Source: Acidimicrobiales bacterium
GTDB lineage: Bacteria; Actinomycetota; Acidimicrobiia; Acidimicrobiales; SZUA-35
Length of the DNA stretch: 64,000 nt
NCBI GenBank assembly: GCA_028285495.1
Contig: JANQPB010000026.1
Coordinates: 1 to 64,000, forward strand
Direction of reading: 5' to 3'
A model generated the notes under the pieces. The model made no database searches and was not told the origin of the DNA. It worked only from the letters and a program-made list of their open reading frames with translations. Position 1 is the first letter of the stretch; the number at the start of each line of letters is the position of its first letter. Position numbers and translations under genes: made by a program. Below, piece after piece: positions 359 to 63,427 of the stretch.

Positions 359-1570
359 TCAGGAACCTCCGAACCAGACGAGCATCAATTCGTCCAACGT
401 CCCGTCCCTTCCGATCTCGATGACGGCGGCGTTGACCTGCTCGAGACGATCGCTCCCGGAGGGCAATGCGATCCCGTACGGGTCCCGGCCGACCGGTGGC
501 TCGATGAGCAACAGGTCGTCGCCGCCGGCCCGGTTCAGGGCGTGGGCGAGGACCGGGGCGTCGAACACCACGGCGTCGACGTCACCGGACCGGAGGGCGG
601 CGATGGCGCCGTCGAGGTCGGACTCCTCCCGGGGGAGGACGCCGATCTCGGCCTGGAGGAAGGGCACCGTCGCCGTCGCCTCGACGGTTGCCACCGGCCG
701 GCCGGCGAGATCGTCGAGGCCGCCGATGTCGGCCTCGAGCTCGGCCACCGTGAGCACCGACGTGGCCCTGGCGGTCACGAAGGCCAGCAGGAACAGACCG
801 ACCAGCATCCAGAACACGGCGATCAGCCGGCTCAACGTGGTGTTGATGTTCTTGACCGCCTCGCCGCCGGTGATGACGCTGACCGTCGACCACCAGATCG
901 CCTCCCCGATCCCCTCGCGGTAGTCGAACGGGAAGTCGTCGGAGTCGTGGCCCCGCTCGAACCACCACACGAGGTGGGAGACGACCAGTACCAGCACCAC
1001 CAGCACGGCGAGCGGCACGACGAACGTGCCGCTGCCGACGAGGGCGGCCAGGGTGCGGAACGTGCCGGCGGTGCCCTCGTCCCGGACCACGATCTGCTGG
1101 CCCGAGATGTAGTAGGGCTGGCTGAAGTCGATGATGGCCTCGCGCTCCCGCGTGATCGAGATGCCGGCGATGGCGGCATCGACGTCACCGGCCTCGGCCG
1201 AGTCGATGATGTCGCCGACGGTCTCCTCGACCACCCACTCGGTCTCGACCCCGAGCCGCTCGGCCACCGCGTTCCAGTAGTCGATGCTGAACCCGCTCAA
1301 GGCATCGGCCTGGACAGGGCCCCGTGCGTCGCCCTCGACGAAGACGAACGGCTCCAACGGCTTGGTGCCGACGGTGAGGACCTCGGCATCGGCCTGGGCC
1401 CCGACCGGCCCGCCGGCCAGCACCATGCCGAGCGCCGCCACCGACACGGCGGACAGCAGCCAGCGGCCGAACCGCCACCGGTCGGCCCCGACCGGCCCGG
1501 CCGGGCGTGGCCGAGCGGGCGCGTCCGCCGCGCCTCGCTGTCGGCAGGTCGTCAACTCCTGTTCCGGCAT
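359..1570 (-). CDS. ligand-gated ion channel, solute-binding (SBP type 3) domain split by a 2-TM pore module (prokaryotic iGluR/GluR0-like architecture)
   Basis: N-terminal signal/TM, SBP lobe (GTKPLEPFVF..DFSQPYY), hydrophobic TM-pore-TM block (WWSTVSVITGGEAV), second SBP lobe (DAVVFDAPVL..). Confidence 0.75.
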   Translation of the reverse strand: MPEQELTTCRQRGAADAPARPRPAGPVGADRWRFGRWLLSAVSVAALGMVLAGGPVGAQADAEVLTVGTKPLEPFVFVEGDARGPVQADALSGFSIDYWNAVAERLGVETEWVVEETVGDIIDSAEAGDVDAAIAGISITREREAIIDFSQPYYISGQQIVVRDEGTAGTFRTLAALVGSGTFVVPLAVLVVLVLVVSHLVWWFERGHDSDDFPFDYREGIGEAIWWSTVSVITGGEAVKNINTTLSRLIAVFWMLVGLFLLAFVTARATSVLTVAELEADIGGLDDLAGRPVATVEATATVPFLQAEIGVLPREESDLDGAIAALRSGDVDAVVFDAPVLAHALNRAGGDDLLLIEPPVGRDPYGIALPSGSDRLEQVNAAVIEIGRDGTLDELMLVWFGGS

Positions 1571-1653
1571 CGGGTGCGATCGTAGTGTTCAACCCGACCG
1601 GCCCCGCACTGCCGGTCGCCCGGGTCGTCGTCGCCGAGCGCCGGGCGGGCCAC

Positions 1654-13969: not shown

Positions 13970-14086
13970 CCACCCGACCTCGTGCGGCCGGGCCAGGCTC
14001 CCGACCCACTGGGCCGAGGTGAGACCGGGCCAGGCGACCGCGTCACCGCCGGCCGGTGGCAGCGCGGTCGCCGGGCGGGTCCTACC

Positions 14087-14986
14087 ATGCCGGACATGAC
14101 GACCCGCATCGAGATCGGGACCTTCGGGGTCTGGACCAGCCTGCTCGACCTGCAACCGACCGCCCGGGTCCGGCAGCTGGTCCGGGAGCTCGACGAGATG
14201 GGCTGGGGCTGCCTGTGGCGGCCGGAGTCGACCGGGCGCGACCCGATGGTGTCGGCTGCGCTGTGGCTCGACGCCTGTCCCCGGATGGCGGTGGCGACGG
14301 GGATCGCCCAGACCTATGCCCGCCACCCGCTGACCACGATGGCCGCCACCCGCACGCTCGACGAGGCCTTCCCCGGACGGTTCCTGCTCGGTCTCGGGGT
14401 CAGCCATGCCCCGCTGGTCGAGGGGGTCCGCGGGCTCGACTATTCAACCCCACTGGCCGACATGGCGGCCCATCTCGATGCCATGGACGCTGCGCCGTTC
14501 ACCGGCCTCGCCCCGGAGGGCCGACCACCGCGGATCCTGGCCGCCCTCGGCCCGAAGATGCTGGCCCTGGCGGCCGAGAAGGCCGACGGCGCCCACCCGT
14601 ACTTCACGACCCCTGACCACACGGCGATGGCCAGGGACATCCTGGGGCCGGACAAGTTCCTGGCCCCGGAGCACATGGTGGTGCTCGACGCCGACGCCGA
14701 CCGGGCCCGCCGGGTGGCCCGGGCCAACATGGCCCGCTACCTGCAACTCCCGAACTACACCCGCAACCTCGAGCGGATCGGCTTCACCCGCGACGACATC
14801 GAGTCGGTCAGCGACCGCCTGGTCGACGCCATCGTGCTGTGGGGCGACGTCGAGTCGATCGTGCCCCGACTCCGTCAGCACCTGGAGGCCGGCGCGGATC
14901 ACGTCTGCGTCCAGGCCCTGGTCGAGGACCCGTCGCAACCCCCGGTCGACGACTGGCGCCGCCTGGCCGAGGCGCTGCTCGGGTAG
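14087..14986 (+). CDS. LLM-class (luciferase-like) F420-dependent oxidoreductase
   Basis: TIM-barrel LLM hallmarks (IGTFGVW, LGLGVSH, PRILAALGPKML), TIGR03620-like size. Confidence 0.8.
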   Translation: MPDMTTRIEIGTFGVWTSLLDLQPTARVRQLVRELDEMGWGCLWRPESTGRDPMVSAALWLDACPRMAVATGIAQTYARHPLTTMAATRTLDEAFPGRFLLGLGVSHAPLVEGVRGLDYSTPLADMAAHLDAMDAAPFTGLAPEGRPPRILAALGPKMLALAAEKADGAHPYFTTPDHTAMARDILGPDKFLAPEHMVVLDADADRARRVARANMARYLQLPNYTRNLERIGFTRDDIESVSDRLVDAIVLWGDVESIVPRLRQHLEAGADHVCVQALVEDPSQPPVDDWRRLAEALLG

Positions 14987-15007: not shown

Positions 15008-18000
15008 TCAGAGGCGACGGGCCCGGCACGGCTCGGTCACGCACGGCGGCACGTCGCCGAGGCCGCCGAGGCCGGACAGCGGGACGCCGGTCAGGCCGCC
15101 GCTGAGCCCGACCGGCCCACCGGCGACGAGCGACCGCAACACCCGGGGCGGACCGGTCGGCGCCGTCGTGGTCGTGGCCCGCTCGGTCGTGGTCGAGGAG
15201 TCGGGCGGTCCGGTCGTCGGCCCGGACGTCGTCGGCCCGGACGTCGTCGGGCTGCTCGTCGGCGCTGACGTGGTCGACCCGGTCGCCGGTTGGGTCGTCG
15301 GCGACCCACCACCCGGCGCCGTCGTCGATGGCGAGGTCGTCGACGGCGACGTCGTCGTCGCCCCCGGGCTCGTGGTCGTTTGGCCCGAGCCGGGGCTGGT
15401 CGTCGGCGTCGTGCCACCGCCCGGCGCCGTCGTCGTGCTCGGCGGGCCGGTGGTCGGCGTAGTCGGGCTCGGACCGCCGCCCGGGTCGAGGTGGGTGAAC
15501 CCGCCCGGCACGAGCAGCACGGTTCCCGCGCTCGGCGAGCGCAGGCTGACGTCGACGGTCCCGGCCTCGGCCCTGGTCGGGGCAACGGCGATGATCCAGT
15601 TGCTGCTCTGGTAGATCAGGTCGCCCGGTTGATCGCCGAACCACACGAAGACGAGGCTGGGGAAGACGCCGTCGATGCTCACCATCGTCTGCTGGTCCAT
15701 CCATCCGGACGTCGGGGTGATCGAGTGGACGGCGAAGGCACCGTTGACCGTCGTCGTCGGCGGGGCCCCACTGGTCGTCGTCGGCGCCACCGTCGTGGTC
15801 GTCGGCTGGCCGGTGGTCGGCGGGTTCGTCGTCGGCGGTGGCTGCGAGGACCGGGTGGTGGTCGTTGTCGTCGTCGGGGCCGTGGTCGGCTGGGTCGTCG
15901 CCCCTCCCCCGCCTGGCGGCGAGGTGGTCGGGGCCGTGCTCGGTTGGACGGTCGTCGGCCCGCTCGTGGTCGGTTGGGCGGTCGATGGCGACGTCGGCCC
16001 GGTGGTCGGTCCCGTCGTCGGCTCGGTCGGGGCCTCGGTCGTCTGGCTCTGGGTGCTGGTCGGCCCCGTCGTCGGCCCGGGCGACGTGGTCGCCGTCGCA
16101 CCCGGCCCTGTTGTCGGTGTCGGCGGTCCGGTGGTCGGCGGTCCGGTGGTCGGCGACGGGGTGGTCGGTGACGTGTCGCCCGGTGCGGTCGACGTCGGGC
16201 CCGTCGTCGACGTGGTCGATCCGGGGGCGGTGGTGGTGGTGCTCGGCTCGTCGACGGTGGCCTCGGGCACGTCGAAGGTGGTCACCCAGGCGTCGCCGAG
16301 GCGGACCGACCGATCGTCCTCGGGCACGGCCTCGACCACCATCGCATAGTCGCCCGGCGGCAACGTGGTCTCGAGGCGGGCCCGATCGCCGGTCCCGTCG
16401 GCCAGCAGCACCGCCCCCGTCTCGTCGGTCTCGTCGCTCTGCCAGTCGACGAGCACCGGATGCTCGACCAGGCCGTATGGCTGGCCGTCGCGGATGGCGA
16501 CGAGCGTCGCCTCCCAGCGATACGGCTCGCCGGTCAACGTCCCGGGCTCGCTCATGGCCAGCTCGGCGACGACCCCGTCGGCGGTGGCCTCGGTCAGGCC
16601 GGTGACGCTGACCTCGACCTCGGTCGGATCGCCCTCGATGCCGAGTGCCCAGGCCTGGTTGATCCGCACCGGGTTGGCGGCGAGGCCGGCGTAGGCCGGC
16701 GGGCGGTCGGCCGTGCCGACCAACTGGGTCCTGACCTCCCGAGGGTCGAGGTCCGGGTTGGCCGAGAGCACGGCCGCCGCCGCCCCGGCAGCGGTCGGTG
16801 ACGCCATCGACGTGCCGTTCATGAACGAGTAGCCGCCAGGCACGGTCGACAGGATCAGCACCCCGGGGGCGAACAGGTCGACCGGCGACCCGTAGTTCGA
16901 GAAGGAGGCCCTGGTGTCGTCCGGGGCCGACGCCCCGACGGTGATCATGTTGGGCGCCTCGATGTTGGCCGGCCACACCGGCTGGGCGTCGAGGTTGACG
17001 TCGGCGTTGCCGGCGGCCACGACGACGAGCACCCCGCTGGCCTCGGCGTGGGCGACGGCGTCGATCAGGACCTGGGCCGCCCACGACGGGGTCCCCGGTT
17101 GGGTGCCGAGCGACATGTTGATGATGTTGGCGCCGTTGTCGGCGGCGTAGCGGACGGCTCGGGCGATGCCGGAGAGGGTCATGCCGCCGGCCCCGTCGAC
17201 GTTGAGGTCCATGATCTCGACCTCGGGGGCCATGCCGACCACCCCGACCCCGTTGTCGGCCGATGCGGCGATCGTCCCGGCCACGTGGGTGCCGTGGTCG
17301 TTCTGCCCGGCGCTCCACGGCTGATTGTCCTCGTTGCCGAAGTCCCAGCCGTTGCAGTCGTCGACGAAGCCGTTGCCGTCGTCGTCGGCCAGGTTGTCGC
17401 AGACCTCGTCGTCGTTCACCCAGCTCTGCCCGGCCAGGTCGGGATGGCCGAAGTCGACCCCGGTGTCGATCACCGCCACCACCACGCCCTCGCCCCGGGC
17501 ACCGGCCTTGGCCTCGACCCCGTCGATGTCGGCGTCGGCGACCTGCACAGGCGGGTTGTCGAGCGCGGACAGGTTGTCGCCGGTGTTGTCGAGCGTCCAC
17601 TGGTACGGCTCGTAGGGGTCGGCGGCGAGGGCGATCGGCGGATCGACGACGGCCTCGAAGCCGCTCCCGTCGAGCGCGTCGGCCTCGTCGGCCACCACCG
17701 CCACCGTGCCGTCGCCGATCGGCACGGCCGAGACCACGCCCTCGATGGCCAGCAGCTCGTCGACGACGTCCTGTTCGGTCAGCGGATCGTCCGCCCGGAC
17801 GACGGGGCGGCCGCTGCTGGCCGACGACGAGCCGACGAGCGGGATGAACGTGCCGCCGTCGTCGTGGAATCCGGGAATCCCGTCGACGAAGACCACCACC
17901 GTGTCCTCGTCGAGGCGGTCGATCAGCGACTGGTCGAGCGTCCAGGCCGGGTCGGGCGGCGGCGGGGCCGACGGCTCGACCGGCTCCGCTGGCGCCACGC

Positions 18001-18400: not shown

Positions 18401-19039
18401 ATGCCCGAGCTCGACCACCTGATCTTCGCCTCGACCGACCTCGAGGTCGGCACCGCCCGCATCGCCGAGCTGACCGGGTCGACCGCTGTCGCCGGCGGCC
18501 GTCACCCCGGGATCGGCACCCACAACGGCCTGCTGACGTTCGACACCACGACCTACTTCGAGATCATCGCCATCGACCCGACCCAGGACGCGCCGGATCG
18601 ACCGAGGCCCTTCGGTCTCGACGACGGGGCCGAGCCCCGCCTGGCCGGCTGGGCGATCCACCCGGCCGACGGCGAGCGCATCGAGGACCTGGTGGCGCTG
18701 CTCGTCGGCGCCGGCCACGACCCCGGACCGGTGCTCGACATGAGCCGGGCCAAGCCGGATGGCACCGAGCTGTCGTGGCGACTCACGATCGGCGATCCGA
18801 CCGACACCCCGGCGGCCACGCCGTTTGCCATCGACTGGGGTGACTCGCCGAGCCCGGCGACCTCGCTGCCGTCGATGGGTGAGCTGGTCGAGTTCCGGGT
18901 CCAGCACCCCGATGCCGCGGCCAGGGCGGTGGCCGAGGCGGTTGCCGCCGCCGTCGACCAGACGGTGGTCGTCGGTGACGGCCCGCCGAAGCTGACCGCC
19001 GTCGTCGACACCCCTGGCGGCCGGGTCGAGATCAGCTGA
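18401..19039 (+). CDS. VOC/glyoxalase-like domain protein
   Basis: Glyoxalase_6-like N-terminus (LDHLIFASTDLEVG..GRHPGIGTHNGLL) and second beta-alpha-beta-beta-beta half. Confidence 0.6.
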   Translation: MPELDHLIFASTDLEVGTARIAELTGSTAVAGGRHPGIGTHNGLLTFDTTTYFEIIAIDPTQDAPDRPRPFGLDDGAEPRLAGWAIHPADGERIEDLVALLVGAGHDPGPVLDMSRAKPDGTELSWRLTIGDPTDTPAATPFAIDWGDSPSPATSLPSMGELVEFRVQHPDAAARAVAEAVAAAVDQTVVVGDGPPKLTAVVDTPGGRVEIS

Positions 19040-19271
19040 TGCCCTGACCACCGAAGGTCGCCCGCTCGGGTTGCCCGCCTGGGCAGGCCGAGGGGCACCG
19101 CCAGGGGAACCGAAGTCCGCCTGCCCGCTCCTGGCCCGGCGCCGCCGGTGCGGTCAGGCTGAGACCGCAGTGCGTGAGCGAATCCCGTCCTCGGTCGAGT
19201 CGGCCCCCGAGCTCGAGACGCCCCTCCGGGCGGAGGTTGGCACCGCGGCGGCCGCGTCGGCGGCGCCAGGG

Positions 19272-21677
19272 ACCATGGCGGGGCGACCCCCACCGGTCGT
19301 CGACGACAGCGCGGCCGATCTGCTCGACGGCCAGCAGCGGGCCACCGCCTTCCTGGCCTCGTTGGAGCAGGCGGCCAGAGGCGTGATCGGCCCGACCGGC
19401 ATCCCGGGCCAGATCATGCTGGCCCAGCAGGTGTCGGAGCTGTCGGCGCTGCCGGCCAGCCGGCTGCTCGCGCAGCTGGCCCAGGCCGTGCCGGAAGCCA
19501 CCAGCGCCGGATCGGCGGCCGGCCTCCGGAACTCGGCCGTTGCCCGATTGGGCCGGCAGGTCCGAACCTGGCACGAGGCCGAGCGGTCCCAATCGTTGCT
19601 GCCTCCCCTCCTGAAGCCGGTCGCCGGCCAGCCGCCGGAACCCGGGGTCGGGGCGACCGGCGAGAAGCCGTCCGAGGCCGGCGCCGTCGCTCGGGAGCTC
19701 GGCTCGGGCCGGCCACTGGGATCGGGTCAGGGGGCGCGCTTCCGGACCGCCCTGGGAACCGACGTGAGCGGGGTACGGATCCACACCGACAGCCGGGCCG
19801 CAGCGCTGGCCGGCCGGTTGGGGGCTCGGGCCTTCACCGTCGGCGACGATGTCGCCTTCGCCCCCGGTCAGTTCCGGCCGGGCGAACCGGTCGGCGACGC
19901 CCTCCTGGCCCACGAGCTGGCCCACGTGGCCCAGCAGCGCTCGGCCGGCGCCGCCGTGGCCGCCAAGAGCACGACCAGCGGTGGGGTGGCATCGCTGGAG
20001 GCCGACGCCGACCAGACCGCCGTCGAGGCGACGCTCTCGCTGTGGGGCGAGGCCCTTGGATGGGCCGGGCGCGTGGCCCGCCGCACCGGTCCGCGGCTGC
20101 GCAGCGGGCTGCAGCTCCAGCGCTGCACCTGCAGCCCGACGCCGACACCGACGCCGGTACCGAAACGGGTCGACCTGCACGGCGGGGCCCAGGTACCAGA
20201 CGCCACCACCCAGCAGGCGATCCTCAACACCCTCATGCCCGGTCGCCTCGCCCCGGCGGCGGCACCGGCCGCCGGGGGCCCGGCGGCGGCCCCCGTCCAG
20301 CTGCCGTGGAAGGGGGCGGCCGACCCGGTGAGCGGCACCGTGTCGCCGGCGGCTGCGGCATCGAGAGCGGCGCTGAAGACCGCACTGACCAACGCCGTGC
20401 TGGCCGAGCTGAACAGCGTCAACACCGACATGTTGGGCGAGGAGGCCGCCTACGCCGCCGCCCGCATGCCGACCTCGAGCTTCGAGGGGGCGGGCGCCGC
20501 AGCCAAGCAGGTCGTCGACACCGTGTACGGCAGCTACGCCAGCGCGGCCGCACTCAGCGCCGCCGATCAGACCCACCGGTCGAGCTTCGCCTTCACCGCA
20601 TCGGGAGCGAACCCCAACCTCCTCGACGCCTACGACCCGGCCGACCGGATCGCCGTCAACCAGGCCATCAGTGCCGAGGCGGTCATCGAGTGGATCCTCG
20701 GCCGGCCGCCGTCCCAGACGGCGATGGCGGCCGAGCGCTGCGCTCCCGCCCGCGGCAACGAGGCCGAGGTGTGGCTCAACGCCGAGGTCGTCACCCCGTT
20801 GGCCAACGGTCCCCGCAAGGCCGACTTCGAGCGCTACGACCGCTTCGGCTTCGCCATCACCAGCGACGACGCCGGCGTCAGCCGGGTGGTCATCCCCACC
20901 ACCCGCGACACCAGTCGGCCCTCGGTCTCCGAGGGCGAGAAGGCGGCGAAGTGGGCGAACTTCGAGACGCTCATCCACGAGTACATCCACGTGCTCGAGC
21001 ACCCCAACTTCACCGAGGGGAAGGCCCAGGCCAGCGACATCATGACCGAGGGCTTCACCGAGTGGTTGACCAAGCCGGCGGTCGAGGCCGCCTACCGGCG
21101 CCTGTCGAGCGACGTCGCCCTGCGCCGCACGGTGGAGGGGACCCCGGCCGGCGACCCCGACCCGCCGAACCCGGTGGGGAACTTCCTCGGTCCGACCTAC
21201 AGCTATGTCGCCAGCTACGCCGACCAGGCCAACGCCATCGCGTCGCTGGTCCCCCACGTCACCGATGCCGGGCTCAAGGCGGTCTACTTCCTCGGCCACG
21301 TCGAGTACCTCGGGCTCGACCCGACCGGGAACGCGGCCGCCCCGGCCACCACCCGGGGTGAGGTCGACACACCGTCTGGGGTGACGACCGTGGCCCAGCT
21401 GAGCGCCCTCACGGGCGTGAGCGAGGCCGACCTCCGGGCCAGCAACCCGGGGCTCCCCGCCTCGGGATCGCCGCTGCCGGCGACGCTGACCGTTCCCGGC
21501 TTCACCCAGCACGTCGTGATCGAGCACACGAGCGGCGCCACCACCAAGACCGAGACCATCGCCGACGTGGCCCGCCAGCACGGCCTCACCGAGGCCCAGA
21601 TCCGGGCCTACAACCCGGGGCTGGTCGGCGCCTCGCTGACCGTCGGCCAGAAGGTCCTGATCCGGAGCGCGCCATGA
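19272..21677 (+). CDS. multidomain zincin-like protein: DUF4157 domain (HELAH) + second HExxH domain (HEYIH) + two C-terminal LysM domains
   Basis: RFRTALGTDVSGVRIHTD..AFTVGDDVAF..LLAHELAHVAQQ (DUF4157 signature); LIHEYIHVLEHPNF; LysM repeats VTTVAQLSALTGVSEADLRASNPGL and ETIADVARQHGLTEAQIRAYNPGL..GQKVLI; no N-terminal signal peptide. Confidence 0.8.
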   Translation, partial: TMAGRPPPVVDDSAADLLDGQQRATAFLASLEQAARGVIGPTGIPGQIMLAQQVSELSALPASRLLAQLAQAVPEATSAGSAAGLRNSAVARLGRQVRTWHEAERSQSLLPPLLKPVAGQPPEPGVGATGEKPSEAGAVARELGSGRPLGSGQGARFRTALGTDVSGVRIHTDSRAAALAGRLGARAFTVGDDVAFAPGQFRPGEPVGDALLAHELAHVAQQRSAGAAVAAKSTTSGGVASLEADADQTAVEATLSLWGEALGWAGRVARRTGPRLRSGLQLQRCTCSPTPTPTPVPKRVDLHGGAQVPDATTQQAILNTLMPGRLAPAAAPAAGGPAAAPVQLPWKGAADPVSGTVSPAAAASRAALKTALTNAVLAELNSVNTDMLGEEAAYAAARMPTSSFEGAGAAAKQVVDTVYGSYASAAALSAADQTHRSSFAFTASGANPNLLDAYDPADRIAVNQAISAEAVIEWILGRPPSQTAMAAERCAPARGNEAEVWLNAEVVTPLANGPRKADFERYDRFGFAITSDDAGVSRVVIPTTRDTSRPSVSEGEKAAKWANFETLIHEYIHVLEHPNFTEGKAQASDIMTEGFTEWLTKPAVEAAYRRLSSDVALRRTVEGTPAGDPDPPNPVGNFLGPTYSYVASYADQANAIASLVPHVTDAGLKAVYFLGHVEYLGLDPTGNAAAPATTRGEVDTPSGVTTVAQLSALTGVSEADLRASNPGLPASGSPLPATLTVPGFTQHVVIEHTSGATTKTETIADVARQHGLTEAQIRAYNPGLVGASLTVGQKVLIRSAP

Positions 21678-22992: not shown

Positions 22993-24048
22993 TCAGGCGT
23001 CTTCGACCAGCGCCCGCAGCTTGCCCATGGTCTCGACCTCGTCCTGGCCGGGGGCCAGGTTGACGTTGAGCACGCTCACGCCGGCCTCCTTCCAGACGCC
23101 GAGGCGCTCCTTCACGTGCGACTCGGGGCCGACCAGGCTCGATCGCTCCAGGAAGTCCTTCGGCACCTTGGCCGCGGCCTCGGCCTTGTGCCCGTCGAGG
23201 TAGAGGTCCTGGATCTCGATGGCCTCCTCCTCGTAGCCGTACTTCTTGGCGATCGTGTTGTAGAAGTTCTTGTCCCGGGCCCCCATGCCACCCCAGTAGA
23301 GGGCCGTGGCCGGCCTCGACAGGTCGTGGACCTTGTCGGCCGCCTCGCCGACGAACTCGTCGCCGATGGCGACCATGGCCCCGGCGGCGATGTCGAGCCG
23401 GCCGAGCGACTCGTCCCGCTTGGCCTGACCGGCCTTCAGGTCGTCGCCCCAGACCCGCTGGAACTCGTCTGGCACGAAGAACACCGGCAGCCAGCCGTCG
23501 GCCGAGCGGGCGGTGGCCTTGACCGACAGCGGCATCAGCGACGCCCAGTAGATCGGCACCTCGCTGCGGACCGGGTGGTTGATCAGCTTCAGCGGCTTGC
23601 CGAGGCCGGTGCCCTCGCCATCGGGCAGGGGCAGCTTGACGGTCTTGCCGTCGTACACGAGGGGCTCGCGCCGCAGCGTCGCACGGACGACGTCGATGTA
23701 CTCGGAGATCCTGGCCATCGGCTTCTCGTATGGCACGCCGTGGAAGCCCTCGACCACCTGGGGGCCGCTGGCCCCGAGGCCGAGGATGAAGCGGCCGTTC
23801 GACACCATGTCGAGCCCGGCCGCGGTCTGGCCGATGGCCGCCGCGGTGCGCGAGTAGACGTTGAGGATCCCGGTGCCGAGCTCGATCCGCTCGGTCCTGG
23901 CCGCCAGGTACCCGAGCTGGCTGACGGCGTCCCAGCTGTAGGCCTCGGCCACCCAGGCCACGTCGAGCCCGGCCTGCTCCATCTCGACCACACGGTCGAC
24001 GGCTGCGGCGAAGTCGCCGGCGTAGTTGATCGTCGTTCCCAGCTTCAT
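22993..24048 (-). CDS. LLM-class F420-dependent oxidoreductase
   Basis: Full-length luciferase-like monooxygenase fold, MKLGTTINYAG.., GLGASGPQVVEGFHG. Confidence 0.9.
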   Translation of the reverse strand: MKLGTTINYAGDFAAAVDRVVEMEQAGLDVAWVAEAYSWDAVSQLGYLAARTERIELGTGILNVYSRTAAAIGQTAAGLDMVSNGRFILGLGASGPQVVEGFHGVPYEKPMARISEYIDVVRATLRREPLVYDGKTVKLPLPDGEGTGLGKPLKLINHPVRSEVPIYWASLMPLSVKATARSADGWLPVFFVPDEFQRVWGDDLKAGQAKRDESLGRLDIAAGAMVAIGDEFVGEAADKVHDLSRPATALYWGGMGARDKNFYNTIAKKYGYEEEAIEIQDLYLDGHKAEAAAKVPKDFLERSSLVGPESHVKERLGVWKEAGVSVLNVNLAPGQDEVETMGKLRALVEDA

Positions 24049-24127
24049 GGCCGCCGATCGTAGCGCTCGCCCCCGGCCGGGACCGATTCGCCGGCACCGG
24101 CCGGGCGCCGTCGGTTACGGTCCGCCC

Positions 24128-36271: not shown

Positions 36272-37777
36272 ATGACCGACACCGACACGACCACGCTCAG
36301 CGAACCGACACCGCCGGTCGAGCACGTCGACGTCCTGATCGTCGGCGCCGGCATCTCCGGCATCGGCGGGGCCTACCACCTGCGCCAGCAGTGCCCGGAC
36401 AAGACCTTCACGATCCTCGAGACGATGGACGGCTTCGGTGGGACCTGGCGGACCCACACCTACCCGGGGATCCGGTCCGACTCCGACCTCTACACCTTCG
36501 GCTACCGGTTCAAGCCGTGGACCGGGGCCCCGATCGCCACCGCCGAGAAGATCCTGACCTACATGGGCGAGGTTATCGACGAGCACGACCTCGACCGCCA
36601 CATCCGCTACAACCACACGATCGAGCGGGCCGAGTGGTCGGCCGACGAGCAGCGCTGGACGCTCTCGGTCACCAGGACCGACACCGACGAGCGGCTGCGC
36701 TTCACCTGCGACTTCCTGTGGATGTGCCAGGGCTACTACCGCCACGCCGAGGGCTACACCCCGACCTGGGATGGCATGGACCGGTTCACCGGCCCGATCG
36801 TCCACCCCCAGACCTGGCCGGACGACCTCGACTACGCCGGCAAGCGGGTGGTCGTCATCGGGTCGGGTGCCACCGCCGCCACCATCATCCCGGCCATGGC
36901 CGCCGAGGCCGGCCACATCACGATGCTGCAGCGCTCCCCCACCTACTTCGCCACGGGCCGCAACGCCAACGAGCTGGCCGACACGCTGCGCGAGCTGGAG
37001 ATCGACGAGACCTGGATCCACGAGATCGTGCGCCGCAAGATCCTCTTCGACCAGTCGCAGATCACGACGATGTCGGCCCAGCACCCCGACCTCGTCAAGG
37101 CGGAGCTGGCCAACGGCATCAAGGAGATCCTGGGCGAGGACTACCCGCTCGACCCCGACTTCACCCCGACCTACCGACCCTGGCGCCAGCGGATCGCGTT
37201 CGTGCCGGACGGCGACCTGTTCCACGCCATCGCCGACGGCAAGGCGTCGGTCGTCACCGACCAGATCGAGACGTTCACCGAGACCGGCGTCCAACTGACC
37301 TCGGGTGAGCACCTCGACGCCGACCTCATCATCACCGCGACCGGCTTCAACCTGAGCGTGCTCGGCGACATCGAGTTCGTGATCGACGGGGAGCCCCTCG
37401 ACTTCAGCCGGACCGTCGGCTACCGGGCGATGATGTTCACCGGCGTGCCGAACATGGCCTGGGTCTTCGGCTACTTCCGGGCCAGCTGGACCCTCCGGGC
37501 CGACCTGGTCGCCGACTTCGTGTGCCGGCTGCTCACCCACATGGACGAGCTCGGCGCCCGCACCGTCGTGCCCGAGCTGCGGCCCGACGACGCCGACATG
37601 GCCATCGGGCCATGGGTCGACGACGACAACTTCAACCCGGGCTACCTGATGCGGTCGCTCCACCTGCTGCCGAGGCAGGGCGACCGCCAGCCGTGGCTCC
37701 ACACGCAGGACTACATGACCGACAAGGACGAGCTGCCCGCCGCCGACCTCGACGACGGGGCGCTCGTCTTCAAGTAG
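36272..37777 (+). CDS. flavin-containing Baeyer-Villiger-type monooxygenase
   Basis: FAD GxGxxG (VLIVGAGISGIGGA), BVMO fingerprint FTGPIVHPQTWP (FxGxxxHxxxW), NADP GxGxxA (VVIGSGATAA). Confidence 0.9.
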   Translation: MTDTDTTTLSEPTPPVEHVDVLIVGAGISGIGGAYHLRQQCPDKTFTILETMDGFGGTWRTHTYPGIRSDSDLYTFGYRFKPWTGAPIATAEKILTYMGEVIDEHDLDRHIRYNHTIERAEWSADEQRWTLSVTRTDTDERLRFTCDFLWMCQGYYRHAEGYTPTWDGMDRFTGPIVHPQTWPDDLDYAGKRVVVIGSGATAATIIPAMAAEAGHITMLQRSPTYFATGRNANELADTLRELEIDETWIHEIVRRKILFDQSQITTMSAQHPDLVKAELANGIKEILGEDYPLDPDFTPTYRPWRQRIAFVPDGDLFHAIADGKASVVTDQIETFTETGVQLTSGEHLDADLIITATGFNLSVLGDIEFVIDGEPLDFSRTVGYRAMMFTGVPNMAWVFGYFRASWTLRADLVADFVCRLLTHMDELGARTVVPELRPDDADMAIGPWVDDDNFNPGYLMRSLHLLPRQGDRQPWLHTQDYMTDKDELPAADLDDGALVFK

Positions 37778-37795
37778 CCGGCACCGGGCGACGGC

Positions 37796-38278
37796 CTACG
37801 GCTGGAGCGCAGCCACGTCGGCCGCGATCTCCTCCGGCGTGGTCATCGGCTCGTAGCGGGCGACGACCTTGCCGTCGCCGTCGACGAGGAACTTGGTGAA
37901 GTTCCAGGCGATGTCGGACGTCGCCCCCTCCCCCGGCTGCTCGGACCGCAGCCACCGGTAGAGGGGTGCGGCCCCGTCGCCGTTGACCTCGATCTTGGCG
38001 AACATCGGGAACGTCACCCCGTAGGTCGAGGTGGCGAACTCGAGGATCTCCTCGTTGGTGCCGGGCTCCTGGTCACGGAACTGGTTGCAGGGGAAGGCCA
38101 ACACGTTGAAGCCGGCCTCGTTGTGCTCGTCGTGGAGGGTACGCAGACCTGCGTACTGGGGGGTCAGGCCTCAACGGCTGGCGACGTTGACCACCAGCGA
38201 GGCGTTGCCCCGGTAGGTGGCGAAGTCGACCTGATCGCCGTTGATGTCGTCCATGACGAAATCGAAGAAGCTGGTCAT
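37796..38278 (-). CDS. gpx: glutathione peroxidase, putative selenoprotein (in-frame TGA at the catalytic Cys/Sec position)
   Basis: N-terminal 35 codons MTSFFDFVMDDINGDQVDFATYRGNASLVVNVASR-TGA-GLTPQY.. continue in frame into ORF 37796..38104 (..LAFPCNQF..WNFTKFLVD). TGA (~38171-38173) sits exactly where GPx has NVAS(K/R)[C/U]G(L/F)T. Coordinates given in ORF-track frame (my row indexing may be off by 1). Confidence 0.75.
38138..38158 (-). promoter_or_regulatory. bacterial SECIS-like hairpin downstream of the gpx UGA
   Basis: mRNA: UGA-GGCCUGACCCCC-CAGUACGCAGGUCUGCGUACC; perfect stem GUACGC/GCGUAC with apex GCAGGUCUGC, identical to the apical loop of E. coli fdhF SECIS; spacing ~12 nt from UGA. 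Confidence 0.55.
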
Positions 38279-38350
38279 GGGCCGCACCCTAGCCCGTCCC
38301 GGCCGGCACCCCAGGGGTGACGGGGCCCGGGACGGTGGCGCACGGCCCGG

Positions 38351-38728
38351 TCAACCGGGGACCGTGTCGAGGCGCAGGACCTCGTCGACCCGGAGCAGGG
38401 CCGGTGGCCGGCCGGTGCCGGACGGTAGCTCGCCCCAAGCCTCGTCGCCGACCAGAACCCGCGGGTTGGTCAGCTCGCGGGCGACACCGTCGATCGTCAG
38501 CGTGGCCCGGCCGGCGGTGCACACGTTCTTGACCCAGTCGGTCGCCTCGGCGCCGTAGACGAGCACGACGGCGTAGCCGCCCTCGACGGGGATCGCCTCG
38601 ACCGGTGTGCGGTAGACGGTGCCGGAGAGCCGGCCGACATGGGTCAGGACCGGGCGGTCCCCCTTGGCCAGCTCCCGGCGGTTGAACGTGTACTTGTTGA
38701 TGTGGCGCATGAAGCTCGGCATCGGCAC
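38351..38728 (-). CDS. deazaflavin (F420)-dependent nitroreductase family protein (Ddn/DUF385-like)
   Basis: MNxFNRR..GGxxxVLLTHxGRKSGxxxxTPV..YVVVxSxGG..DWxxN-type motif pattern of PNPOx-like F420H2 reductases. Confidence 0.8.
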   Translation of the reverse strand: MPMPSFMRHINKYTFNRRELAKGDRPVLTHVGRLSGTVYRTPVEAIPVEGGYAVVLVYGAEATDWVKNVCTAGRATLTIDGVARELTNPRVLVGDEAWGELPSGTGRPPALLRVDEVLRLDTVPG

Positions 38729-61326: not shown

Positions 61327-62604
61327 TCAGCCCCTGGGGTCGGTGACCTGCCCGGCGAACAGTACGGCGCCGGTGTCAACGTGGCGGACGAGATAGAGGA
61401 ACGGCCGGTCGGCTGCCACCAACAACTCCGGCTCGGGCGGGCCAGAGGTTGCGAACCCGAGGCCCGTCGCGGCTGCCGCTTCCGTGCCGATCTCGTCGAC
61501 GGCGATGTCCGCCCCGTGCACCGCACCGTCGAGGAACACGCCGGGGCCGATGCCGGGGAAGGCACCCGGAGCGATCCCGCGTTCGGTCAACCAGCCCAGG
61601 AAGTCGATCGCCGTCGTGGTCTCCCACTCGGGCATGCGCAGCTCGTATGGGCCTGTCGTGAACACACCGTCGATCTCAGCCAAGAAGTCGGACGACAACC
61701 GGGAACGGACGTCATCGAAGCGACCCTCGTCAGGCACGATGATCAACATCGCATAGTCGTCACCCAGGTACGGGACCTCGGCCCCGACGAACCCGTCACC
61801 AACCCCCCGGGGGCCGGGCTGCTCGAGATCGACCAGGTACGTCATCTCGACGGTGGTCCCGTCGAGCCGAGTGAAGGGACCTTCGATGGTTCCGTACTTG
61901 CCGAAGATCGTGCGCCACTGGGCCTTGAAGTAGACGGTGTCGGTCAACACCAACACGGTGCTGCCGTCGATGAAGCCAGCCGGGAGCAGCTCAGGGATCA
62001 GGTCGTTGGTCTGCTCCGACACCCACGAGTTGATCCGCTCGCGAGAGCCTTCGGGATCGCTGACGTCAATCGTCTCGACGTCGGCTCCGTGGTGGCTGGC
62101 CATCAGGTCGACCCAATCTTGATCGGGGGCGGCCGTCGTCGAGGGCCACAGCCGGTCCGAGACGGTGACGATCGGCGTCGCCGTCTCGTCGATGGCGACG
62201 GCGGTGCCGTTCGAGGCCGCAAGTTGGGCATCAAGAGCGTTCCAGGCATCGTGGGCGGCCATGCCAACCGGTAGGGCGAGCGCTTCATCGATGGCCGCTG
62301 CCGTCGCATCGTCAGCCGCACCGCGGGCCATCAACAGCGCGTGGCCGATACTGAGCGGGCTGAACACCAGGTTCTCGCCGACCGGCTGGGTACGCATCAG
62401 ATCGAGACCGCCGTCGGTGAACCCGGAGACCAGATCATCGATCGGCGCATCGGCCACAGGCAGGGCTCGCTCGACACCGGACGAGGGCTCGACCACCCCA
62501 CCGGCCGAACCGGAGCTGTCGCCGCCGCACGCCGCTGCGACGAGAAGCGCAGCGACGACAGCCAGCATGCCGAGACGAGGGTGGACGAAGGCGATCCGTG
62601 TCAT
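61327..62604 (-). CDS. serpin (serine protease inhibitor) family lipoprotein
   Basis: Serpin C-terminal signature ..FVADRPFLYLVRHVDTGAVLFAGQVTDP, reactive-centre hinge IGTEAAAATG; N-terminal lipobox LVAAAC; ATG at 62604. Confidence 0.85.
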   Translation of the reverse strand: MTRIAFVHPRLGMLAVVAALLVAAACGGDSSGSAGGVVEPSSGVERALPVADAPIDDLVSGFTDGGLDLMRTQPVGENLVFSPLSIGHALLMARGAADDATAAAIDEALALPVGMAAHDAWNALDAQLAASNGTAVAIDETATPIVTVSDRLWPSTTAAPDQDWVDLMASHHGADVETIDVSDPEGSRERINSWVSEQTNDLIPELLPAGFIDGSTVLVLTDTVYFKAQWRTIFGKYGTIEGPFTRLDGTTVEMTYLVDLEQPGPRGVGDGFVGAEVPYLGDDYAMLIIVPDEGRFDDVRSRLSSDFLAEIDGVFTTGPYELRMPEWETTTAIDFLGWLTERGIAPGAFPGIGPGVFLDGAVHGADIAVDEIGTEAAAATGLGFATSGPPEPELLVAADRPFLYLVRHVDTGAVLFAGQVTDPRG

Positions 62605-62860
62605 GGTCGGTAGGACGCCAGGGCGGGGCCGCTGGTTCCCCGACGTCCCCGCCAGCCGGTCGGCGACGGGCACGACCCGACCCGCCCGGGTACGGCGCCA
62701 GAGCGCTCGGGTCGCACCAACGCCAACGTTCGGCGTCATGGGGCGGGCCGACGTCGAACCGGCCAGGTCCGAAGGCGACGGCACCCAGCGGCTGCCGAGA
62801 CCACACGCTCGGAGTCTCGGGTTGCCACAGTCGGTGATCAGCGGGCCGGTCGTCGACCGT

Positions 62861-63427
62861 TCACATCATCCCCAGTTCGAGGCGAGCCACGTCCGACAGT
62901 CTCGAGGCGTCCCAAGGGGGATCGAACACGAGCTGGACGGTGACCACCTCGACGCCGACGAGCGCGGCTACGGCGTCGTGGAGGTCCTGGCGGATGATGT
63001 CGCCCATCCCGCAGAACGGGGCGGTGACCGACATGTCGATGTCGACCCGCCAGCCCCCGCCGGGGAGCTCTTCGCCGTCGACCCGGTAGACGAGACCGAG
63101 CTCGACGATGTCGACCGGGATCTCCGGGTCGTAGACCGTGGCCGCCGCGGCCCACACCTGGTCGAGGCTGAACTCGCCGTCGCTGTCCTGAACGTCGGAG
63201 GAGCCGGGCCGGACGAAGCCGAACTCGACCGAGTCCTCCTGGCTGAGCCGCACCATCTCGCCCTCGGCGGTGTTGACGGTGGCGGTCCCGCCGAGCGCCT
63301 GGAGGAGGGTCACCCGTTGACCGGCGGGCAGAACGGTCCGGTGGCCGGCCGGGACCACGGTGGCCACGCAGTCCCGCGGGAGCTTGAAGCCTGCGGTCGA
63401 GCCGATGCTGACGTTCGATTCACGCAT
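62861..63427 (-). CDS. DUF59 (MIP18/SufT-like) Fe-S assembly-associated protein with N-terminal extension
   Basis: C-terminal VYDPEIPVDIVELGLVYRVD..MSVTAPFCGMGD..VVTVQLVFDPPW matches DUF59; immediately downstream of sufD. Confidence 0.7.
   Translation of the reverse strand: MRESNVSIGSTAGFKLPRDCVATVVPAGHRTVLPAGQRVTLLQALGGTATVNTAEGEMVRLSQEDSVEFGFVRPGSSDVQDSDGEFSLDQVWAAAATVYDPEIPVDIVELGLVYRVDGEELPGGGWRVDIDMSVTAPFCGMGDIIRQDLHDAVAALVGVEVVTVQLVFDPPWDASRLSDVARLELGMM

Follow-up and report, generated by a model that had tools for sequence, protein, structure and literature searches.

A predicted selenocysteine-containing glutathione peroxidase gene with a conserved hairpin behind its in-frame UGA in an uncultured Acidimicrobiales-like actinobacterium

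Selenocysteine (Sec)-containing forms of glutathione peroxidase (GPx) have been a predicted family in bacteria since about 2005. One gene was reported in Treponema denticola (PMC1794560), five in the Sargasso Sea data (PMC1088965), and the Global Ocean Sampling (GOS) data contained 40 Sec forms against 3,287 cysteine (Cys) forms (PMC2398784); a review from 2026 lists the bacterial Sec-GPx with its UxxT motif as “predicted with high confidence” (PMC13188914). Here we analyze a candidate member of this family encoded at positions 37796 to 38278 of contig JANQPB010000026.1 (assembly GCA_028285495.1), of which the first 64,000 nucleotides constitute the window referred to throughout. From comparison of sequences we consider it highly probable that this locus is one functional gene for a GPX4-like, Sec-containing peroxidase of the GPx family with 160 amino acids, in which an in-frame UGA is read as Sec. 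The window gene adds a member to the predicted family and no new mechanism, and we found no report of a Sec-GPx in Acidimicrobiales in the open-access literature. An earlier note on this DNA had described Sec-GPx as rare outside a few lineages; the proteins are indeed uncommon in bacteria, but their rarity was overstated, as they have long been described (PMC1088965, PMC2398784, PMC13188914).

The described members of the bacterial Sec GPX-like family (e.g. T. denticola WP_010957027.1 and the Sargasso/GOS sequences) resemble the window gene in having the GSHPx domain PF00255, Sec in a UxxT motif (UGLT in the window) and a Sec insertion sequence (SECIS) element inside the open reading frame (ORF) right after the UGA, and in both cases the Sec forms are rare beside Cys homologues. 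The window gene differs in its host, an uncultured Acidimicrobiales-like member of the Actinomycetota represented by a metagenome-assembled genome (MAG), and its protein is likewise a prediction. The mammalian selenoprotein GPX4 shares the monomer-type GPx architecture, the NVASxU/CG, FPCNQF and WNFTKFL motifs and the catalytic tetrad with the window protein, but carries its SECIS in the 3' untranslated region, where it is read via SBP2/eEFSec, whereas the putative window SECIS lies in the coding sequence and would be read by SelB. Finally, the thioredoxin-dependent Cys-GPx enzymes (E. coli BtuE-type, PRK10606; poplar GPX5, 2p5q; yeast Hyr1/Gpx3, 3cmi) have the same fold and size, with a peroxidatic Cys at the position where the window protein has its predicted Sec, and such Cys forms make up most of the relatives.

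Reading frame, catalytic residues and orthologues

The coding features of the locus, all located on the minus strand, are as follows.

37796..38278 (-), complete predicted Sec-GPx coding sequence of 160 codons, with ATG at 38278..38276, TAG stop at 37798..37796 and the putative Sec-UGA as codon 36
38174..38278 (-), N-terminal 35 codons, absent from automated annotation and ending in the conserved motif L-V/I-V-N-V/L-A-S
38171..38173 (-), in-frame UGA (U36) at the peroxidatic Cys/Sec position, aligned with TGC/TGT or TGA of homologues
38081..38089 (-), codons C64-N65-Q66 of the FPCNQF motif, placed by alignment to GPX4-type chains
37901..37906 (-), codons W125-N126 of the WNFTKFL motif, catalytic Trp and Asn of the GPx tetrad, placed by alignment to GPX4-type chains

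Translation of 38278..37796 (-) reads MTSFFDFVMDDINGDQVDFATYRGNASLVVNVASR, then a stop, then GLTPQYAGLRTLHDEH...WNFTKFLVD...ALQP and the terminal stop. The sole internal stop is the TGA at 38173..38171, which stands in the context NVASR-stop-GLTPQY, so that the earlier claim of a GPx frame interrupted once, by TGA at the catalytic codon, holds. When Cys was substituted at the stop, the Pfam GSHPx model (PF00255) matched along its full length (profile 1-108 of 108) with 137.7 bits against a cut-off of 27 (E = 1.4e-40), while the split pieces cover profile 1-31 (the N-terminal piece, E = 7.6e-6) and 56-108 only. The best match in NCBIfam was the glutathione peroxidase model PRK10606; all matches there were to generic GPx models and below cut-off, and NCBIfam contains no model dedicated to Sec-GPx. 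The nearest natural solved structures are GPX4-type peroxidases, with E ~1e-43 over residues 3-154. Since the NVASxCG, FPCNQF and WNFTKFL motifs all align with GPX4-type chains, the stop falls on the peroxidatic residue, and Q66, W125 and N126 join U36 (UGA) to give a complete catalytic tetrad.

C64 is the only Cys in the window protein. At the “Cys-block” position (residues 103-107, AAPLY, 37958..37972 (-)) the window protein has Ala, and there is consequently no obvious resolving Cys apart from C64. The same position is occupied by Cys in 14 of 21 Sec-clade proteins (GDGAC[D/E]LY) and by His in 53 of 60 Cys-type relatives (GDGAHPLY), a pattern that may be relevant to the question of whether Sec is accompanied by a resolving Cys and, with it, by dependence on thioredoxin.

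The part of the gene upstream from the UGA also has the appearance of coding sequence. The G+C content at third codon positions (GC3) of the N-terminal 35 codons is 0.88, the orthologues preserve both their frame and their length, and the V, N, A and S of the terminal motif are invariant. On the 3' side of the UGA the ratio of non-synonymous to synonymous changes (dN/dS) is 0.12-0.25. As the earlier note had pointed out, the ORF caller split this gene, in a 38-amino-acid piece (38171..38287) and a 102-amino-acid piece (37796..38104, start GTG at 38104), and the public protein collection holds only the 102-amino-acid C-terminal fragment of the window GPx (P0005). Taken at face value, the split would mean that the locus makes two products, a 35-amino-acid peptide and a separately initiated protein of ~102-125 amino acids, with the hairpin described below as a translational coupling or attenuation element. 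A GTG at 38104 does open the annotated ORF, but the shorter protein is devoid of the peroxidatic residue and of half of the GSHPx domain. We saw neither a conserved start nor a ribosome-binding site, and between the UGA and the GTG the sequence shows the conservation of a GPx coding region. We therefore regard two separate products as exceedingly improbable.

Conservation of the UGA was analyzed in two homologue sets, 80 loci from species-representative genomes and 80 loci from metagenome contigs, each obtained in one scan with a protein query. TGA was found at the position of codon 36 in 20 of the genome loci, including the ten closest, and in 27 of the metagenome loci, 47 in total. All remaining loci (60 genome and 52 metagenome homologues, 112 together) have TGC or TGT there and are Cys-type. 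The ten closest genome loci come from eight Acidimicrobiales or Ilumatobacteraceae MAGs, one Myxococcales MAG and one Gammaproteobacteria MAG; the other ten with TGA belong to Gammaproteobacteria/Pseudomonadales (including Azotimanducaceae), a second Myxococcales MAG, an Alphaproteobacteria MAG and an unclassified Pseudomonadota MAG. The TGA-bearing orthologues thus belong to four or more bacterial lineages and have an open frame both before and after the TGA, and the Sec forms make up one clade in a neighbour-joining tree. Cys codons in close relatives had been named earlier as a sign of a nonsense mutation; in all closest orthologues the codon is TGA, not TGC/TGT, and a nonsense mutation private to the window is ruled out by the TGA in 47 orthologues.

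The hairpin downstream of the UGA

Three features on the minus strand describe the region immediately 3' of the UGA.

38157..38170 (-), 14-nt spacer from the UGA to the hairpin base, codons G-L-T-P and part of Q, with freely varying synonymous sites
38139..38156 (-), putative SECIS hairpin, with 5' arm GUACGCA at 38156..38150, loop GGUC at 38149..38146 and 3' arm UGCGUAC at 38145..38139
38139..38158 (-), 20-nt element CAGTACGCAGGTCTGCGTAC, encoding Q-Y-A-G-L-R-(T), near-invariant in all TGA-bearing orthologues

The RNA 3' of the UGA reads GGCCUGACCCCCCA-GUACGCA-GGUC-UGCGUAC-CCUC and forms a stem of 7 bp with a 4-nt loop. The hairpin starts 14 nt and the loop 21 nt from the UGA, and the folding energy is -8.5 kcal/mol for the bare hairpin and -9.5 kcal/mol with flanks. 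The “perfect” hairpin reported earlier at about 12 nt is thus real as a 7-bp hairpin at 14 nt, but the outer C, A and C of the 21-nt string given for it are unpaired. The consensus for bacterial SECIS elements (bSECIS; PMC13188914, Fig. 2) asks for a loop of 3-9 nt, an upper stem of 4-16 bp, a G within the first two loop positions, a distance from UGA to loop of 16-37 nt and a minimum free energy of -7.5 kcal/mol or lower. The window hairpin satisfies all of these constraints, with its GGUC loop, 7 bp, GG first, 21 nt and -8.5 to -9.5 kcal/mol.

The window hairpin can be compared with the SECIS of E. coli fdhF. In NC_000913.3 this gene reads TGACACGGCCCATCGGTTGCAGGTCTGCACC, where Sec codon 140 is followed by CACGGCCCATCGGTTGCAGGTCTGCACC. 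The apical 10-mer GCAGGUCUGC (as RNA GCAGGTCTGC) is identical in E. coli and in the window, as the earlier note had recognized, with the GGUC loop closed by A-U, C-G and G-C, and both elements lie in frame just 3' of the UGA. The two elements also differ. In fdhF the loop follows the UGA by 18 nt, as against 21 nt in the window; the 5' arm GGUUGCA is one base, a bulged U, longer than the 3' arm UGCACC, whereas the window stem is a perfect 7 bp; and the lower stem and the host protein are unlike those of the window. The bulged U of the fdhF hairpin is important for E. coli SelB. “fdhF-like”, as the hairpin had been called, accordingly applies to the GGUC apex and not to the bulge or the spacing. 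The fdhF hairpin binds the WH3/4 domains of SelB (PMC7590224), and the window hairpin would presumably function by the same mechanism.

For quantification of the constraint on the element, the first 21 TGA sequences (the window and the 20 genome loci) were compared with 60 Cys-type homologues. Every TGA-bearing sequence has CAGTACGCAGGTCTGCGTAC or a close variant of it at the same distance from the TGA. In the TGA forms the third-position entropy of codons +5 to +10 (CAG TAC GCA GGT CTG CGT) is only 0-0.28 bits, compared to 1.56-1.94 bits at codons +1 to +4 before the element and 1.17-1.96 bits after it, and the same element codons show 0.84-1.75 bits in the Cys-type homologues. Synonymous sites are thus frozen in the TGA forms only, so that the constraint is on the nucleotides and not on the peptide. 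These frozen sites are the main argument for selection at the RNA level.

Pairing of the stem was analyzed in all 48 TGA sequences, 45 of which are distinct. Of the 315 cells that make up the 7-bp stem, 99% are paired, and two of the seven pairs show compensatory changes. Pair 21-32 is CG in 42 sequences, UA in two (L107 and L119, at the cost of an Arg-to-His change) and UG in one, and pair 22-31 is GC in 43, AU in one (L017, with Ala-to-Thr and Arg-to-Cys changes) and GU in one; at pair 19-34, UA and UG alternate as a G-U wobble. The compensatory changes in L107, L119 and L017 alter residues that are otherwise conserved. When columns were shuffled, 0-7 of 500 shuffles reached the observed pairing measures, and slid registers pair far worse.

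The Cys forms serve as a control for the same region. Those that keep the Sec-clade peptide YAGLR.L (L009, L085, L088 and L103) deviate from the element at synonymous or stem positions. For YAGLR(A/T/Q)L, L085 and L087 use GCC, which opens the closing pair, L088 uses GCC GGG CTG CGC, L103 uses GCG GGA CTG CGC, and L009 has ACA GGC. The idea that the hairpin is a by-product of the peptide was rejected, as Cys forms with the same peptide use other synonymous codons. L009 is nested in the Sec clade beside L011, suggesting a reversion from Sec to Cys and a hairpin in decay, and L127, a Cys form with the L031-type peptide YAGLCTL, shows the same pattern beside the L031 type. Taken as a group, L009:10100-10150, L127:10106-10150, L085:3001-3480, L088:3001-3474 and L103:4153-4200 look like recent Sec-to-Cys conversions with SECIS decay.

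Three TGA-bearing metagenome loci (L098:440-484, L123:263-307 and L124:399-443) show a different deviation, as the variant apex GCCGGGUUGC replaces GCAGGUCUGC. Their apex GCC-GGGU-UGC has a 6-bp stem and a 6-nt CGGGUU loop with the G still early in the loop, and it may represent a second SECIS flavour within the same gene family.

Decoding of the UGA and the Sec machinery

A number of observations weigh against a functional gene decoded with Sec. Of the 1189 TGA trinucleotides in the window (71% G+C), 17% precede a contiguous bSECIS-compliant hairpin, so the bSECIS model is permissive here, and the 71-nt fold has z = -0.51, showing that the hairpin alone is not above chance. When the whole window was scanned at gathering score, the Rfam SECIS models (RF00031, RF01988-RF01990 and others) gave no match, and when E values up to 10 were allowed the region 37750..38350 gave no SECIS, only two chance matches within the 3' half of GPx; these models cover few bacterial SECIS types (bioRxiv 10.64898/2026.04.03.716425). 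A fit to a SECIS model, the check suggested earlier, was thus obtained with the published bSECIS consensus but not with the Rfam covariance models. The covariation in the stem is real but thin, as an element that hardly varies leaves little room for it. The 35 N-terminal codons appear to evolve fast, with dN/dS of 0.4-1.2 in short, noisy comparisons. Finally, tblastn with E. coli SelA, SelB and SelD found no selA, selB or selD in the 64-kb window and ARAGORN found no tRNA there, and neither sel homologues nor tRNA-Sec were found in ~2.1 Mb of flanks of the 160 related and four further loci; over all loci tblastn returned a single weak GTPase match, in L051. tRNA genes were searched for in the window, in the 20 genome loci with TGA and in L009, and in loci L085-L168. 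A search of the window and the loci for further in-frame TGA codons that are flanked on either side by coding signal and accompanied by a GGUY hairpin gave nothing convincing besides GPx.

The permissiveness of the bSECIS model could be taken to favour an ordinary pseudogene or a sequencing error, that is, a Cys-GPx in which TGC was changed to TGA by nonsense mutation or miscall and in which the hairpin is coincidental, and the change from TGC to TGA takes a single base. It is clear, though, that the same TGA is present in the 47 orthologues, that variation at synonymous hairpin sites is suppressed in the TGA forms alone, and that the frame has no further stops or frameshifts. In addition, the Logan assembly of SRR20820731 (contig L084, 1.4 kb) is 100% identical to the window over 1387 nt, TGA included, and with an independent assembly identical across the site the TGA is no assembly artefact. 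A TGA at the catalytic codon combined with conservation of the element in the orthologues is far beyond chance, and we attach practically no probability to a pseudogene or an error.

A second question is whether the UGA could be decoded as something other than Sec, either through a reassigned code (Trp or Gly) or through near-cognate read-through by Trp or Cys independent of a SECIS. Some gene calls from the Joint Genome Institute (JGI; P0001, P0007) translate the UGA orthologous to window 38171..38173 as Trp (NVASAWGLTPQYAGLRAL and NVASEWGLTPQYAGLRAL). These calls presumably stem from calling with genetic code 4 on short contigs, with which they fit in style. In the window, the stops of 27 confident genes are TGA in 22 cases and TAG in five, showing that the standard genetic code is used and UGA is a stop. 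Moreover, Trp at the peroxidatic position would make the GPx inactive, and simple read-through leaves a dedicated, conserved hairpin with its loop at a fixed 21 nt unexplained. Decoding other than as Sec is in our view very unlikely.

The search for the Sec machinery is best discussed together with the possibility that the gene is a relic, inherited as a Sec-GPx by a lineage that has recently lost the Sec machinery, so that the gene is silent or truncated and its decay is yet to come. The failure to find sel genes and tRNA-Sec in the window would agree with such a history, as would the patchy distribution of the Sec trait and its frequent loss in bacteria (PMC1794560) and the Sec-to-Cys conversions within the clade (L009 and L127). 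On the other hand, no decay is visible in the UGA, in either half of the frame or in the 20-nt element, all of which agree with the consensus, whereas in lineages that gave up Sec a Cys codon has taken the place of the UGA and the hairpin has decayed. That no sel genes lie in the window means little, since 64 kb makes up only a minor part of a genome. Actinobacteria are known to include organisms with the Sec trait, which has moved horizontally among them (PMC5029168), and selA/B/C/D are present in 84 of 84 complete genomes of Actinomarina, a genus of the class Acidimicrobiia (bioRxiv 10.64898/2026.04.03.716425). We consider a relic improbable, and prefer the functional Sec-GPx gene.

If the gene is a functional Sec-GPx, most ribosomes would pass the UGA at codon 36 without termination. 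SelD would provide selenophosphate and SelA would convert Ser-tRNA(Sec) to Sec-tRNA(Sec), whereupon SelB in its GTP form would bind the Sec-tRNA(Sec) and deliver it to the UGA in the A site. The 18-nt hairpin would act as the bacterial SECIS and be bound by the C-terminal winged-helix domains of SelB, and Sec would be inserted as the peroxidatic residue beside the conserved Gln66, Trp125 and Asn126. Binding of SelB, a set of selA/B/C/D genes in the rest of the genome and the incorporation of selenium are all inferred from what is known of this pathway in bacteria.

Genomic surroundings and implications

Pfam analysis of ~30 window ORFs revealed ordinary chromosomal genes and nothing related to selenium. 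The annotated genes include leucyl-tRNA synthetase (LeuRS), an aquaporin, a methyl-accepting chemotaxis protein, an L,D-transpeptidase, luciferase-like monooxygenases, a subtilase, a P450, a CoA-transferase, a flavin monooxygenase, an F420H2-quinone-reductase-like protein, a RidA-like protein, an EamA transporter and a serpin. A flavin/Baeyer-Villiger-type monooxygenase gene (36272..37777 (+)) converges on the GPx gene, with the two stops 18 nt apart. The same monooxygenase adjoins the Sec-GPx of the Acidimicrobiales MAG L006 (L006:11949-13391), and beyond this neighbour no synteny with relatives was seen.

The actinobacterial origin proposed earlier for the DNA is supported, as the nearest relatives of the GPx are Acidimicrobiales MAGs and the window LeuRS is 100% identical to an NCBI protein (P0125) that has mates labelled “MAG: Actinomycetota bacterium” in its cluster of at least 90% identity; more distant LeuRS matches (~70% identity) are Acidimicrobiales MAGs. 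Around the GPx gene there are probable F420-linked genes, namely an F420H2-dependent quinone reductase-like gene at 38351..38728 (-) and luciferase-like monooxygenase genes at 13970..14983 and 22996..24114, which fits an actinobacterial host.

Some other genes of the window deserve mention on their own. An ORF of ~512 amino acids at 61330..62865 (-) has a full-length serpin (serine protease inhibitor) domain (E = 1e-60), and serpins are uncommon in bacteria. The gene at 362..1588 (-) combines SBP_bac_3, Lig_chan and Lig_chan-Glu_bd domains and looks like a prokaryotic channel of the glutamate-receptor type. An ORF of ~890 amino acids at 18996..21674 (+) carries an eCIS core domain and a C-terminal LysM domain, and beside it on the opposite strand lies a subtilase gene (Peptidase_S8, ~16700..17500 (-)). 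From 15.0 to 22.9 kb there are long overlapping ORFs with high GC3 on both strands, and the gene boundaries in this part are provisional.

The 20-nt element is frozen across Acidimicrobiales, Myxococcales, Gamma- and Alphaproteobacteria, and this 20-nt SECIS, nearly unchanged across phyla and with an apex like that of E. coli fdhF, is a notable detail of the family. On this basis one may speculate that the element is a “universal” SECIS, a host-independent optimum for SelB binding, and that the gene is a self-contained cassette, horizontally mobile among Sec-competent hosts. We regard this as a tentative idea that is rather less likely to be right than wrong by a good measure; if it were true, the window gene would be the first evidence of Sec-based peroxide defence in soil/freshwater Acidimicrobiales-like Actinomycetota. 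The intact SECIS elements, the compensated stems and the Cys revertants with decayed hairpins offer, as a natural series, material on the exchange between Sec and Cys and on what SelB needs in a SECIS.

The truncation to 102 amino acids and the translation of the UGA as Trp constitute an annotation error that recurs across genomes, and, as seen from the JGI calls, public protein sets hold Sec-GPx either truncated or with a false active-site Trp. As a result of this mis-annotation, too little would be reported of the means by which these uncultured Actinomycetota defend themselves against peroxides and of their dependence on selenium. With the gene very probably being a functional Sec-GPx, the hosts of this family would extend to an aerobic, high-G+C actinobacterial lineage.

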